Part shown: positions 2,148-39,700 of the stretch, one piece after another
Numbering within the stretch: the stretch's first letter is position 1
Layout of the letters: each line of letters begins with the position of its first letter
Virus record (IMG/VR): IMGVR_UViG_2643221492_000001
Span: 7,564-71,563 of that record
Source: a virus
Direction: 5' to 3' (one strand)
Length of the DNA stretch: 64,000 nucleotides
Program-made: the position numbers and the translations under genes
Notes under the pieces: generated by a model
What the model was told of the DNA's origin: nothing
The model's input: only the letters and a program-made list of their open reading frames with translations
The model's database searches: none

Positions 2148-3934
2148 CAGGAAATCTCCATGAAGCCGCTGTTCGCGGCAGTGGTGCCTTCGAGCGGCTC
2201 GTTGTCGAGGGCGTGCATGCAGGCCCACGCGAGGTCGGCATGGCCGGTGTCTTCGGTGCGCCCCGCTTCGAACGTGACATTCCGGCCGCTGGCCGTGAGC
2301 GTCTTGCGGATGGCGAGGAACGCGTGCGCGAGATCGACCCAGCCAGCATCGAACTCGAGTCTTCCCTTGCTGATCACGCTCTTGGCCTTCAGCACAAGGC
2401 GCGTCTTCACCTCGAGCGAGTAGTTGATCGCCCTGGCGGCGGGGAAGAACTTGCTCACCAGCTGGTAGACGCCCTGGCCAAGGCCCGTGGTGTCGATGCC
2501 GATGTACGCCACGTTGTAGCGCTCTGTGATCTTGCGAATGGCCTCGGCCTGCGCCTCGAAGTCGAGGCCTCGGAACTGGTGCTTCTCCAGCACGCGGAAC
2601 TTTCCGCCGGGGCGATCGGGCGGCGCGAGCACCACGCAGCCGGCGGTATCACCGGTGTGCGAGGGGTCGTAGCCCACCCACACCGGCCGGTAGCCGTAGG
2701 GACGGGGCGCCAGCGGCTTGTACACGTCGGCCCAGTCCACCCACGAGTCGACCATGCACGCCTGCAGCTCCGACATCGGGAACACCGATTGCGTGTCGTC
2801 GATGAACTCGCACATCAGCAGGTTGGCGAACTCCTGCGGGTTGTACTCGAGCCGCAGTTCGTCGATGTCGAAGAGATCGCAGCCTGCGGCCTCGGCGTCG
2901 ATGATGTTGACGATGTTGCGCCACACCTTGTCTTCGCCCGTGAAGCCACCGGCCAGGCGGTCGTGCGAGAGGTCGATGGCGACGCGTTGATCCTTCGGCC
3001 GGTTCTTGTTGAAGTGGGCGCCGCTCCAGCGTGCGTAGGCCTCATGCTGGATCGAGCTGGGCGAGCTGAAGTAGGTCTTGCGCCAGCGCTTGTGCATCGC
3101 CATGGCGCTCGCGACCTTGTTGAGCTCTTCGAAGCGGTGCGTCCAGAAGAACTCATCGAAATAGAAATTCCCGTGGTAGCCCTGGGCGGTGCGCGCGTTG
3201 GTGCCGAGGAAGTAGATGTGAGCGCCGTTGGGCAGGATCATCGGATCGCCGGTCAGCGTCACGCCGCAGGCTTCCTGCGCGAACTGCACGATGTACTGGC
3301 GGAAGATGTACGCCTGCGCCTTGCTGGCCGACAGGAAGATCTGATTGCGCCCGGTCTTCAGCGCGTCGACGAGGGCTTCGCGCGCGAAGTACCAGGTCGC
3401 GCCGATCTGCCGGCTCTTGAGCACCATGCGCGTGCGCTCGTGCCCGTTGCGGAACCATACCTTCTGATGGCCGAAGAGCGAGTCCTGAAACGCCTCGTAC
3501 AGCTCGTCGGCCTGCTCATCGGTGAAGTGGTTGCGCTGCGGCTTCTTCTTCGGTCCAGCATTGCGCTTCTCGATCTCGGGATTGAGGTCCGCTTCCTTGC
3601 CGGTCTTCTCGTAGCGCGTGATGCGCGCGGTGCGCTCCAGCTGCCGGCCCAGCAGGTCGATCTCTTTGAAGTCGCCGCCGGTCTTCGATTCCTTGCCGAT
3701 CAACTGCACGAGCCGGGCTTCGAGCGCGCCCTCCACGCGTTGGATCGGTTGCGCCTTGTCCCACTCCTCGGCATCCTTCCATCCGTGCACTGTCGTGCGC
3801 GGAATTCCAAGATGTTCCGCGATCGAGGAAATGCGCCAGCCTTGCCAGTAGAGATGACGCGCCGCGCGGCGCTGATCCACCACCGGCGCACCAAGGGCCT
3901 CGGGCGCTTCGACGACATCGCTGCATGAATCCAT
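2147..3934 (-). CDS. terminase ATPase subunit (gpP)
   Basis: N-terminal HTH (YWQGWRISSIA), LKSRQIGAT Walker A, YFDEFFW Walker B, C-terminal nuclease (GYDP, HADLAWA). Confidence 0.96.
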   Translation of the reverse strand: MDSCSDVVEAPEALGAPVVDQRRAARHLYWQGWRISSIAEHLGIPRTTVHGWKDAEEWDKAQPIQRVEGALEARLVQLIGKESKTGGDFKEIDLLGRQLERTARITRYEKTGKEADLNPEIEKRNAGPKKKPQRNHFTDEQADELYEAFQDSLFGHQKVWFRNGHERTRMVLKSRQIGATWYFAREALVDALKTGRNQIFLSASKAQAYIFRQYIVQFAQEACGVTLTGDPMILPNGAHIYFLGTNARTAQGYHGNFYFDEFFWTHRFEELNKVASAMAMHKRWRKTYFSSPSSIQHEAYARWSGAHFNKNRPKDQRVAIDLSHDRLAGGFTGEDKVWRNIVNIIDAEAAGCDLFDIDELRLEYNPQEFANLLMCEFIDDTQSVFPMSELQACMVDSWVDWADVYKPLAPRPYGYRPVWVGYDPSHTGDTAGCVVLAPPDRPGGKFRVLEKHQFRGLDFEAQAEAIRKITERYNVAYIGIDTTGLGQGVYQLVSKFFPAARAINYSLEVKTRLVLKAKSVISKGRLEFDAGWVDLAHAFLAIRKTLTASGRNVTFEAGRTEDTGHADLAWACMHALDNEPLEGTTAANSGFMEIS

Positions 3935-3986
3935 GCGGGTGAGGCTATGGGCGCTCGCGTCTCTTCGCGACGCCTCTCAGACCTGT

Positions 3987-4017
3987 TTCGGTTGTAGATC
4001 GCGCATTCACAACCGAA
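3987..4017. promoter_or_regulatory. late-promoter activator (Ogr-type) site for the divergent P/O promoters
   Basis: Inverted repeat TTCGGTTGT-N13-ACAACCGAA; near-identical copy upstream of gpV. Confidence 0.75.
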
Positions 4018-4087
4018 TTGCATTGAGCCTCGCGCATGCTCGGCCGACCATCAGCGCCATCACTCGTCAACCTACCCGCACACCACC

Positions 4088-4939
4088 ATGGCCCAGAAGT
4101 CCAAGTTCTTTCGTGTCGCCGTCGAAGGCGCTACCACCGACGGTCGCACCATCGAGCGCTCCTGGCTGCAACAGATGGCCGCCAACTTCGACCCCGCGAA
4201 GTACGGCGCGCGCATCTGGCTCGAACACATTCGCGGCACGCTGCCCGACAGCCCCTTCAAGGCCTACGGCGACGTGACCGCGCTGAAGTCCGAGGAGATC
4301 ACTCTCGACGGGCAGAAGAAGCTCGCGCTGTTCGCCCAACTCGACCCCACCCCCGATCTGGTCAAGCTGGCGAAGGAACGCCAGAAGATCTACACCAGCA
4401 TGGAGGTCAACCCGAAGTTCGGCGACACCGGCCAGGCCTATCTGGTCGGCCTGGGCATCACCGATAGCCCCGCGAGCCTGGGCACCGAGATCCTTAGCTT
4501 CGCGGCCAAGCACCCCGACAGCAACCCCTTCGCGGGGAAGAAGCAGGCGCCCGAGAACCTCTTCTCCGAGGCCGTCGAGGTCACCCTCGAATTCGAGGAA
4601 GAAGAGGACGAAGACAAGGGCGTGCTCGCGAAGGTGAAGAGCTGGCGCGATTCGTTCTCGAAGAAATTCGCCTCCCAGTCGAAGCGCAACGACGCCACGG
4701 CCACCGAGCTGATGGGCGCCCTCGATGACCTCGGCGAGACGCTGCAGGCGTCGGTCGAGCAAGGCAGCACGACCTCCAAGGATCTCGCCGCCTTGCAGAA
4801 GAAGTTCAACACGCTCGAAGCCGAGCACAAGGGCCTGAAGGCGAAGTTCGAAACCATCGACACCACCGATGCGAACAAGCACTCGCGGCGCCCGCCGGCC
4901 ACCGGCACCGATCCGAAGATGCAGACCACCGACTGCTGA
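4088..4939 (+). CDS. capsid scaffolding protein (gpO)
   Basis: KFFRVAVEGATTDGR, RIWLEH, YLVGLGITDSPASLGTE. Confidence 0.95.
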   Translation: MAQKSKFFRVAVEGATTDGRTIERSWLQQMAANFDPAKYGARIWLEHIRGTLPDSPFKAYGDVTALKSEEITLDGQKKLALFAQLDPTPDLVKLAKERQKIYTSMEVNPKFGDTGQAYLVGLGITDSPASLGTEILSFAAKHPDSNPFAGKKQAPENLFSEAVEVTLEFEEEEDEDKGVLAKVKSWRDSFSKKFASQSKRNDATATELMGALDDLGETLQASVEQGSTTSKDLAALQKKFNTLEAEHKGLKAKFETIDTTDANKHSRRPPATGTDPKMQTTDC

Positions 4940-7508: not shown

Positions 7509-7925
7509 ATGCAAGACTGGCTCAAGAAGCTCTTCACCGAACCCCAGACGCTGGGGATCATCGTTTCCAGCGCCCTCGTCGGCCTCTTCGCCGGCCTCGC
7601 GCAGGGTGTCGTTGAAAAGCGCCACGGCGGCTGGGGCGGCTTCCTGCGCGCCCTGCTCACCGGCGTCTCGGTCGCGGTCTTCGTCGGCCTGGGCATCGAG
7701 GGCTTCGTGGCGTCCGAGACGCTGCGCCTGGCCATCGTCGGCGCCTGCGCCGTGGTCAGCGAGGACATCTGGATGGGTCTGCGGTCCGTGGGCGGCGCCA
7801 TGCGCAACGACCCGCTCGGCTTCGCGGTGCGCCTGCTCGATGCCATTCGCGGGCGCGATCACTCGGCCCGAACGTCCGGCGGCACCGACTTCGCGCCACC
7901 CACCGATGAAAGGAGCAAACCATGA
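7509..7925 (+). CDS. putative holin (multi-TM membrane protein)
   Basis: About three hydrophobic segments, charged C-terminus, first gene of the lysis block. Confidence 0.6.
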   Translation: MQDWLKKLFTEPQTLGIIVSSALVGLFAGLAQGVVEKRHGGWGGFLRALLTGVSVAVFVGLGIEGFVASETLRLAIVGACAVVSEDIWMGLRSVGGAMRNDPLGFAVRLLDAIRGRDHSARTSGGTDFAPPTDERSKP

Positions 7926-36700: not shown

Positions 36701-39700
36701 TCGGAAAGATTCTCTTCCTCGACCAATGAGTCGCTGACCTTCCGGCCGTAGCTCTGCTCCTGGAACTCACGATTTGCCAAGCTGTCCCGAGACACGCGGC
36801 GCAAAGCAGCCATCAGGCCCGCATGCAGGTCTGGGTGAGCCTCTTTGAGCGAATGCGTGAATTCGTGCCCGAAGGTCGAAACTGGGTCGACATCGCCACG
36901 AGCGTGGATGTAGACGGTCTTCGGGTCGCCAGGAACATAAGCGCCACCGGCAGGAGCGTTCGGATCGTCAGACTGGAAGTAGACCGTCTCGACGCCGAAA
37001 TACTGCTTCATCGCAGCGGCGAGCTGTCCTCTACTAGACTTCGGTTCGACCTCAACATGGCGTACCCGCACATCGGTGCCGGCATCCTTGCTGAGAGCTG
37101 CGGCGAGCCTGGAGACTCTCGACGCATCTGCCGAAGCAGCTTGACCATTGGAAGCCGCCGACGTGCTCTCTCGCGAAGAGCGGCGCGATAGCGCATCCAT
37201 CTCTTCGCCCATGCGCGAAGACCGGCGAGCAATCGGATCGGCGGAAGCATTCGGCGATTCTATGCCCGCTCCGTCCTGACTCACCCATTCGGGCAGCAAG
37301 CCGGTCTTCTGGTCTGCAAAGACAGTGTTGACGCCGCTGGCGGTCCGGTTGCTGTCACCGTGCGGCCCGTAGTTAACCCAGGAATTTTGGCCCCGGGTCT
37401 CGGAGGTCATGGCCCTTCGCGCCAGCGGCGAGTACATGGCCGAATGCAAGCGCCATGCGTTCTCCTCGCCATCAGCACGGAAGCCGACAGCCTCTTTGAC
37501 GTGCCCGAAGTAGTCGTGAACGATGCGGAAGACATCGTTCGCCACCATGTCAACGCCGTCGAGCGTCTCGCCAACCTTGCGGAGTAGCGGATTCGAGCTG
37601 GCGTCGAAGCTGCTGGAGCCGAATCCATCGGTCGTGGGGAACACCCAGAGGTGGTTGTTCTCCTGCACGTCGATGATCGCCAGGCGAGGCGACGCAGCAT
37701 ATGGGTCGCCGCCCTTCTCAAAGTCGATGAACTCGACTTTCAACTCCGGGTGATACTTCTTGATCGCCGCCCACTGCGCGAGAGTCTCCTCGATCATCTT
37801 GTCGTAGGCGGCCTTGACCTCTGGGTCAGAGGGGTCGTGAGCCATCTCGGCGTAGGCGTCAGCGATACGCCGCGCTCGCCCCTCGTCAACGCGAGCAAAC
37901 GTGGTCGGCGGCTTGTAGTCGATACCCGCGTCGCGAGCGTAAGCCTCGGCGACAGCACGGGCTTTCTCCGTGGGGCGGACTTCAACCGCTCCCCTGCCGG
38001 GAACCTCTATGGTTGCCGGGAGGCCTGCAAGTCTTCCGCGTACTTCTCCAGCGCTGCGATGTTCCGCCCCTGGTTGAACCGCCACCGACCGAGCGCTTCT
38101 TCGTGCTGCTCCGTCGTCTCGAAGTCCTCGCGCTTGGGAGCTGTTCTCTTCAGTTGCTCGGCCCTCTCGCGGGCCTGCGCTGCTGTGATCGCTTCCATTT
38201 ACGCCTGCCCTTCCTGGGGACTGTTCCCGTCCATCACGCTCGTCGCGAAGCCGCCCGGAATCAACTGGCTCTCCAGCCGGTCGGGAATCTTGCCGGTCTT
38301 GATGGCCTCTTCCATCTGCTCGATCCACAGATTGCGCGGCATCGCCTCGGGCGGGATCGACGCGCTCTTGCCGAACTTCAGCCGGAACTCGCGCATCAGC
38401 TCGGTCGCCCGGCTTGGCTTCAATGACACTCCTTGCGTACTCATAGGCTTTCGGCGCACGCCGCTCCAGTTCTGCTCTATTGGTGAAGTATGCGCGAACG
38501 ATCTGCGCATGAATCTCCGACTGCACGAGTGCAGCCGGGAGTGGCTTTCCAGAATCGGTTGCATCGAATGCAGCTTCAAGTGGGTACGCAAAAAGCGTCG
38601 CCAGCGAAGAGCCGTCTTGAGCGCCATAGAGGTCGAAGACCTCCTGAGCCACCGCGCCTTTAGCTTCAATACTACCATCGGTAGTAATAGCGAGCCGCGA
38701 ATCGCTCGCAGAGCGCATTGCGTTGCCGTCGAAGTCGCCGTTATGCGCCAACTCGTGGATGAGTTGCCCGCGGAATTCCTGCTGCTCTGCCAGGTTCGCA
38801 TTCAAGCCGGGGACCGTCGAGTCCACGTCGGTCTGCTTGAATGAGACGCCGCGCACAGTCTTGCCACGGAGGTTCTTCTTGAAGAAATTGGCAAGTCCCC
38901 CGGGGAACTTCGGCGTGTTGACAAAGAAGCCTTGCACCGAGTTCACCCAAGCGCGGGGCACGCCAAGCGCAAGAATGTCCCGCAGAGCCGCCGAGACAGC
39001 CTGAGACTGCTCATTCGACAGGGCGCCGAACATCGTGCCTGTCGGGTCGCCCATGAAGTCTGGTTCACCGAACTGATGCTCGTGATCGAACGTCGGATCG
39101 AGATCGACGCGGGCCTCGGGATCGATGTTCTCGGCCGGCCGACCAAATGCGGGCTGCGACTGCACGCCACGGCGCGCATCGCTTCGACGCAACGCCTCGA
39201 CTGCGGCTTCGCGATTACCCTCACGGGCGGCACGAGTTGCTGCAAAGAATTCGTCTCGGGTCATGTGCCCGGCCTTGACCGCATCGCGGCCCGCCTCCGT
39301 CACATGGGACACAAAGTCTTCATCAGCCGCCGTGGTTGACTCCTGCCGCGTTGACGTGATCTGACCTTGCTCGCCAGCGATCTGTCGCAGCGCCTCGATC
39401 ATCGCATCAGCGTCCTTGCCGCGCAGCACCGCTACTGCGCGACGAGGCTCGGCTGCGATGGCCGCGCGTGCCATACCGATGTCGTCGCCAGCAATGGGGG
39501 CCTTTGCCAAGAGCGACTCTGCGGTCTTGGCTGCCATGCGGTTCAGCTCCCCGCTGATGCGGGCTTTGTCGGCTGCTCTCCCAACCAGTCGCGTTGCCCC
39601 CAAACGGTCGCTTGCCGCGCCGGCTTGGCGCATTGCCTTGGGGCTCAGAAGACGCGGCGCGACCGCGAGCGGCCCATCGGCCAACGCGGCACGCAGCAAA

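Follow-up and report, generated by a model that had tools for sequence, protein, structure and literature searches.

The 64,000-nucleotide stretch of viral DNA analysed here, called the window throughout, covers positions 7,564 to 71,563 of the IMG/VR record IMGVR_UViG_2643221492_000001 and is part of a 97.6 kb provirus. It carries a giant open reading frame (ORF) of 2837 amino acids, and in the +1 frame of this giant gene, on the same strand, lie two small abutting ORFs, A and B. These are very probably real, separately translated nested genes, each tied to its own domain of the giant protein: A to the zincin-like domain that precedes it, named the HELAH domain after its motif, and B to a further conserved domain, D, that follows it.

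The two ORFs were first noticed in a sequence-only reading of the window, which described A as 74 amino acids read from a TTG with AAGGAG 5 nt ahead of it, B as 63 amino acids opening at a TAAATG junction, and the +1 frame as rich in G/C at third positions. These features and the quoted peptide motifs are all present, and A extends to 81 amino acids if it is read from an upstream ATG (coordinates are collected in Table 1). The AAGGAG has a calculated duplex energy of -8.0 kcal/mol with the anti-Shine-Dalgarno sequence and is the strongest candidate within the open stretch. In the flanks, giant codons have a GC content by position of about 0.60/0.35/0.82, whereas values of up to 0.94/0.56/0.40 are reached within the segment, so that the third-position signature there belongs to the +1 frame. 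A sustained flip of this kind is found in the whole 8.5-kb gene only at 38444-38007; many long off-frame ORFs occur elsewhere in the gene. The giant is nevertheless translated through the segment, because the LAGLPAT motif of D (LxGLP) in the giant frame begins before the stop of B, overlapping its last 7 codons, and no ATG, GTG or TTG lies between that stop and the conserved start of D. Separate initiation of the C-terminal part of the giant after B is excluded on the same grounds. A consensus scan of 37900-39000 gave no sigma-70-like promoter and no terminator, and A and B are therefore most simply read off the giant gene's own transcript. The earlier proposal that A and B protect the lysogen thus finds no promoter-like site there to support expression in that state.

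Selection acts on both frames. The sequence-only reading had cautioned that the giant frame might stay open easily in such a gene. In 5000 trials the A and B proteins were held fixed and synonymous codons were drawn anew according to the codon usage of the giant gene; only 0.42% of the trials left the giant frame of the window open (P=0.004), with 4.75 stops expected on average, which disposes of the caveat and rules out a frame open by chance. The same procedure gave 0.02% (P=0.0002) in the homologous lineage L005 and 0.18% (P=0.002) in L007, and the product of P over 8 lineages is 8e-13. At the A-B locus of Variovorax sp. WDL1 (L011), which lies outside any giant, the corresponding giant frame has at least three stops. 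The giant frame is thus kept open by selection while its linker sequence is otherwise free, its amino acids evolving without constraint. In the B frame, the ratio of nonsynonymous to synonymous differences (pN/pS), is 0.16 as against 2.2 in the giant frame for close pairs, 2-15% diverged in nucleotides (range of the estimates 0.16-0.24 as against 1.75-2.2), and differences between close pairs fall on B codon positions 1/2/3 at 0.06/0.05/0.20. In the A frame it is 0.45-0.63 as against 1.2-1.7 in the giant frame. Both nested frames are therefore under purifying selection.

B recurs widely in front of D. The domain D alignment (A4) has a mean column identity of 66% and 61 invariant columns among 12 diverse sequences, and tblastn hits of D in phages begin at giant residue 1396-1397. 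A scan of IMG/VR with this alignment confirmed at least 586 relatives among the 600 pattern matches listed, of which 80 were kept; 78 of these contigs had enough upstream sequence for a test with the B profile (threshold E<1e-3). A hit upstream of D was obtained in 39 of the 78, always in frame +1 and at -220 to -35 nt from D, with none in the other two frames. The B-bearing genomes range in GC from 0.39 to 0.69, and in AT-rich ones the ORF stands as a clean block of about 45 codons between stops. The sequence-only reading held that homologues lacking a ribosome-binding site in the +1 frame would speak against the genes; an ATG start was found in 37 of the 39, and Shine-Dalgarno pairing at these starts is stronger than at other ATGs of the +1 frame (median -5.8 versus -2.8 kcal/mol, P=1e-5). 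The window's B matches a profile built without it at E=1.8e-12, again in frame +1 only. Two GenBank phage records, one an isolate (Planktothrix phage Pag-Yong1) and one environmental (the Manatee Spring phage genome), also carry a B-like +1 ORF just upstream of D, with GC by codon position of up to 0.93/0.60/0.17 at B, and both are devoid of the HELAH domain. The sequence comparisons thus place B with the downstream domain D and not with the HELAH domain.

A, by the same kind of comparison, belongs with the upstream HELAH domain as a cassette. Homologous giants were collected with giant residues 1050-1750, and their DNA was then compared. The HELAH domain of the window giant is 40-58% identical to those of P0002, P0005, P0076 and P0109, with the HExxH motif and a conserved downstream Glu readable, and an A-like +1 ORF follows it directly in 8/8 homologous giants (flank identity 39-58%), including P0002/L002, P0005/L003 and P0003/L005, where it stands right behind the end of the domain. 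The fragments L006 and L007 are arranged in the same way, and no stop interrupts their giant frame; both were found via A itself, which removes the length bias of the first search. In the more distant giants L012 and L013 this linker holds one A-like +1 ORF, about 100 amino acids long, and the GC flip recurs there. In the alignment of the family (A1), F, F, W, G, P, L and G are invariant; the profile hits of the family, at E 1e-29 to 1e-33, fall in the +1 frame only, and in every lineage a start codon lies 12-24 codons ahead of the conserved Phe. The stop-start junction recurs as TAGATG in L003, as TAAATG in L005 and L014, and as a stop followed by GCG and ATG in L006 and L007. A second protein search with the HELAH domain returned only P0002 and P0005, so that the constant association of A with HELAH rests on 8 lineages. 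A search of the phage collection with the DNA of the segment gave no match, and scans of viral contigs for A, both with the single sequence and with the alignment, gave nothing. One hit from the metagenome scan, L010, proved to be an Hsp70-like protein and was rejected.

The small ORFs can persist in the absence of a giant. The sequence-only reading had asked whether homologues sit behind HExxH domains as nested or as free genes, and both forms occur: the nested A-like ORFs described above, and free copies at four loci. The chromosomal locus of Variovorax (L011) holds a fused ORF of A-B' type, 163 amino acids long, beside a decayed remnant of a HELAH end (B' being an ORF that takes the place of B, see below). 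A 4.4-kb plasmid-like contig with a Mob_Pre relaxase (L014/L015) encodes a 60-amino-acid protein, then an A-like ORF, TAAATG and a B-like ORF. L008 is a lone A near IS1595 and a type I restriction system, and at L100, where the giant frame is interrupted, a protein with two B units in tandem is encoded. Such free-standing copies begin at the ATGs that correspond to those of the nested ORFs, and they look as orphan immunity genes would be expected to look.

The giant itself is, on its sequence, a polyvalent virion or ejection-type protein of the prophage. Polyvalent proteins of phages and conjugative elements have been described as a class (Iyer et al., 2017; PMC5512222), to which the giant belongs: it combines an N-terminal SLT transglycosylase (Pfam SLT, E=1e-10) with at least three further conserved modules and sits in a virion gene module, its upstream neighbours being tail-fibre, internal-virion-protein and virion structural genes. 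Its PHROG matches are internal virion protein/endolysin and lytic tail proteins. Residues 1050-1750 retrieved 1347 large homologues, and ART-PolyVal or LPD domains are present in many of them; the domains carried by these homologues include ART-PolyVal, InPase and LPD22/23/38.

Table 1. Positions in the window of the giant gene, its domains around the dual-coded segment and the nested genes.
Feature	Position	Strand	Basis
Giant ORF, 2837 aa	33706..42219	(-)	ORF list and translation
HELAH zincin-like domain, giant residues ~1050-1262, C-terminal end APKAYEYA	38434..39072	(-)	Alignments to P0002, P0005, P0076, P0109
Nested gene A, frame +1, 81 aa from ATG 38444 or 74 aa from TTG 38423	38199..38444	(-)	Stop codon TAA 38201-38199
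Shine-Dalgarno-like AAGGAG	38429..38434	(-)	5 nt ahead of TTG 38423; rare giant-frame codons GCA AGG AGT
Dual-coded R/G/D-rich linker of giant, residues ~1262-1404	38007..38436	(-)	Codon-position GC flip, open frame P=0.004, unconstrained giant-frame sequence
TAAATG stop-start junction A/B	38196..38201	(-)	Sequence
Nested gene B, frame +1, 63 aa, core PKREDF..EQHEEALGRW	38007..38198	(-)	Start at ATG of TAAATG; stop 38009-38007
Domain D, giant residues ~1397-1660 (LAGLPAT.., HDYFGH, GEENAW, SETRGQNSW)	37240..38031	(-)	tblastn, alignment A4

The explanation that we favour on balance joins the nested genes, the cassettes and a partner role of the small products. Ribosomes would initiate A and B separately, in the +1 frame of the giant mRNA, each at a Shine-Dalgarno site and start codon of its own, while the giant frame passing over them need only stay open and would thus yield a disordered R/G/D-rich linker. 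A with the HELAH domain and B with D would form two cassettes; in the window phage these abut, hence the translationally coupled A-B pair with its TAAATG junction. Made in the producing cell off the same late transcript as the giant, A and B would hold their domains inactive or export-competent until the giant has been packaged and ejected, and would themselves remain behind. A partner role of one kind or the other for the neighbouring domains seems slightly more probable than not in view of the strict linkage to particular domains and of the orphan copies. Of its two forms, an inhibitor or immunity function is a real possibility, though short of probable, and a chaperone function is unlikely. 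Such a layout may have come about by fusion of adjacent effector genes, with translation carried across the small gene in a different frame, an origin that fits the codon signature; de novo overprinting is the alternative, and the two are inseparable since no un-nested B-D pair was seen.

Several observations weigh against this explanation. About half of the D domains are without a detectable B, yet their conserved catalytic-looking motifs are intact, and on the D tree B-bearing sequences are mixed with B-less ones, so that D can do without B. Some of the B-less cases resemble a diverged B, as in L085, where a B-like ORF can be recognized by eye, and in L044, which just misses the threshold (E=3.8e-3). 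The Shine-Dalgarno sequence before A is strong only in the window, L012, L013, L007 and L005 and is weak elsewhere, and the selection signal in the A frame comes from only four unsaturated pairs. Neither profile nor fold searches linked A, B or D to a characterised protein, and the toxic or enzymatic character of the HELAH domain and of D is putative only.

A and B could instead be independent small effectors, for instance in anti-defence or host takeover, that are placed in the linker to save space and travel with a domain by physical linkage. Each of the two genes has its own start and encodes a small, acidic, helical protein, their best profile matches are anti-CRISPR proteins, albeit non-significant (E 0.04-0.17), free copies are found in islands and on a plasmid-like contig, and many D domains do without B. 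Their position is nevertheless very fixed, B lying 35-220 nt before D and A directly behind HELAH, a third nested family (see below) is also bound to one domain, and space-saving does not predict domain-specific linkage across very diverse phages, so that we regard this explanation as rather improbable. Programmed +1 ribosomal frameshifting, which would generate truncated giant isoforms ending in the A or B peptide, is very unlikely. Isoforms of this type are common in phage structural genes, and ahead of A the +1 frame of high-GC lineages contains no stop for tens of codons. The B ORFs of low-GC genomes, however, begin with an ATG at or just after a +1 stop, which leaves scarcely any room for a shift site; the prevalence of ATG and the enrichment of Shine-Dalgarno pairing at B, as well as the starts of the free-standing copies, also speak for initiation. 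The DNA of three giants diverges right behind the conserved APKAYEY codons at the start of A, and no conserved slippery sequence was seen in reading this region in the three giants or diverse 25-mers upstream of B, no dedicated motif scan having been made.

It is still less probable that the target of selection is the linker peptide of the giant, which might for example hold a processing site, or else an element of the RNA or DNA, the +1 ORFs being by-products. A GG[VL]RGG-like motif of the giant frame does recur upstream of D in many homologues, and polyvalent proteins are said to be possibly processed by proteolysis. This motif is, however, the shifted reading of EEYEEA in B, its G/R variation matches synonymous changes of B, and the contrast in pN/pS between the two frames of B rules it out as the selected feature. 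The GC3 signature (GC content at third codon positions), the ATG and the Shine-Dalgarno sequence all belong to the +1 frame, and A and B persist as ORFs where the giant frame has stops. The probability of an artefact is practically negligible, whether the ORFs are taken to have arisen by chance in high-GC coding sequence or separate genes to have been joined by frameshift errors of the assembly. Off-frame ORFs do become long in high-GC DNA, and the giant gene has many. The arrangement, however, recurs in more than 45 independent assemblies, including the two GenBank phage records and genomes of GC 0.39-0.45, which rules out an assembly or frameshift error; significant profile hits are confined to frame +1, and selection is seen on both frames.

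The nearest precedent for the genetic arrangement is lambda Rz/Rz1, where a complete gene with its own start is likewise nested on the same strand in the +1 frame of another phage gene. The products of Rz and Rz1 are partners, and a single transcript has to supply both. Rz1, a lipoprotein with a role in lysis, has no sequence similarity to A or B, whereas A and B are soluble-looking, helical, 45-80 amino acids long and encoded in a disordered linker of a multi-domain virion protein; unlike in Rz/Rz1, two or three nested families occur per giant gene, each tied to a particular domain. Polymorphic toxin systems (MuF, CdiA-CT/CdiI and Rhs) have a small gene coupled to an enzymatic module of a large delivered protein, with orphan copies of the small gene elsewhere; A and B may resemble them in this, orphan copies being seen here too, although many D domains have no B. 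They are characterized by a C-terminal toxin domain and a separate immunity gene downstream, whereas the HELAH domain is internal (~1050-1262 of 2837), the small genes are overlapped by the giant, and B lies upstream of D. An immunity gene behind a C-terminal toxin is thus not what is found here: A does follow a domain, but an internal one, and B precedes its own. The toxin-immunity cassettes proposed by the sequence-only reading consequently stand in part, in that A and B are conserved nested cassettes tied to domains, and fail in the MuF-type order. Type II toxin-antitoxin operons and type III secretion chaperones offer another likeness, a small acidic helical protein encoded beside a larger protein and translationally linked to it, and the order of B before D and the coupling of A and B match their layout. 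Their genes are adjacent, however, and not nested as A and B are, and no similarity of sequence or fold to them was found. Neither HELAH nor D has a match among the Pfam models of the copy used, and a term search of the article by Iyer et al. (2017; PMC5512222) found no mention of overlapping or frameshifted ORFs in polyvalent genes.

Searches of the full-text literature returned nothing on nested genes in polyvalent proteins. The nested +1 gene as a kind is known from Rz/Rz1, and what is new as far as could be found are the families, their location in effector linkers, their linkage to domains and their breadth. Phage genes nested out of frame are known, and to our knowledge few of them are both widely conserved and demonstrably under selection. 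B recurs in AT-rich to GC-rich phages, within giant injected proteins that are central to the conflict between phage and host. Standard annotation misses such genes and calls them on contig fragments only: on L006, L007 and L099 the gene caller picked the nested A or B over the giant frame, and on full-length contigs the giant ORF is the only call. It is because of these choices on fragments that A and B homologues exist in protein databases at all, homologues of B having been retrieved among 1.8 billion proteins. R/G-rich linker stretches and GG[VL]RGG are accordingly the shadow of another gene, a point that changes the annotation due to polyvalent proteins. A concrete model for the building of modular effectors would be fusion across a small gene, and the two or three new small proteins provide handles on uncharacterised, highly conserved effector domains. 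If A and B were inhibitors, they would mark these domains as dangerous enzymes and supply natural antidotes. We suggest only tentatively, and with some doubt, that the linkers of polyvalent effectors form a hidden coding layer in which each enzymatic domain can carry an overprinted +1 gene for a partner, be it immunity factor, inhibitor or chaperone, in the linker beside it; giants would then be built from such domain-plus-nested-gene cassettes, joined by read-through of the small gene. Three unrelated nested families, A, B and the MKKP-type family described below, point to a principle that may be general and missed by gene callers.

Neither fold nor profile searches gave a functional match. 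The AlphaFold model of A has three helices with a predicted local distance difference test score (pLDDT) of ~84 over residues 11-60, and the model of D has a pLDDT of 87. Foldseek searches of PDB and the AlphaFold database (AFDB) with the models of A and D gave nothing significant; D resembles only uncharacterised AlphaFold clusters, among them stand-alone AFDB proteins of about 250 amino acids. In VIA-align, no alignment of D exceeded a Z of 2.5, and the top solved structures included ArdC, minigluzincins and YbeY; D may thus be zincin-like, which is a lead from a model and not a finding. For A, B, HELAH and D alike, Pfam, PHROGs, PADLOC and PDB sequence profiles yielded no significant match; the searches revealed neither a DNA-binding nor a chaperone fold, and the ESM Atlas returned for A unnamed clusters only, below 0.9.

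Behind A, in the place of B, L002, L003 and L007 have the ORF B' (DPN[RA]PETEE..EA[LI]RR), and L006 has a divergent ORF there. These lie at 6749-6931 in L003, 545-757 in L006 and 533-769 in L007; in L002 the ORF comes after an inserted frame-0 segment. The tail of the ORF at this position is a P/T/S/A-rich out-of-frame sequence over the start of D. None of the B' ORFs of L002, L003 and L007, nor the ORF at the B position of L006, gave a hit to the B profile, and B' is treated here as a separate or highly diverged family. The three consecutive small ORFs of L014 lie at 3325-4257 (also in L015); the first of them, the 60-amino-acid protein, bears ERNLEGDDEM..WPF, with a decayed remnant of a zincin-like-domain end upstream; the WPF motif also ends the fused A-B' proteins P0123 (Variovorax) and P0128.

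A third nested +1 family, of 58-67 amino acids and starting with MKK[PQ].., occupies another linker of homologous giants. Its ORFs lie at gene nt 5687-5863 in L002, 5813-5986 in L003 and 5606-5806 in L005 (the locus position is gene nt + 3000), and the window giant has neither the corresponding domain nor the MKK[PQ] ORF. The ATG lies inside the conserved GRISYEEAA of the giant, the codon-position GC flip is the same, and the family is tied to one domain; its presence in these three lineages hints that the phenomenon is general. Upstream of A in the window, the +1 frame is open from 38801, and its translation ahead of 38444 is R/S/T-rich junk. Within the C-terminal half of the HELAH domain (38470-38800), GC3 is low, 0.46-0.60 as against a gene mean of 0.73, and the giant frame is clearly the conserved frame there despite this low value.

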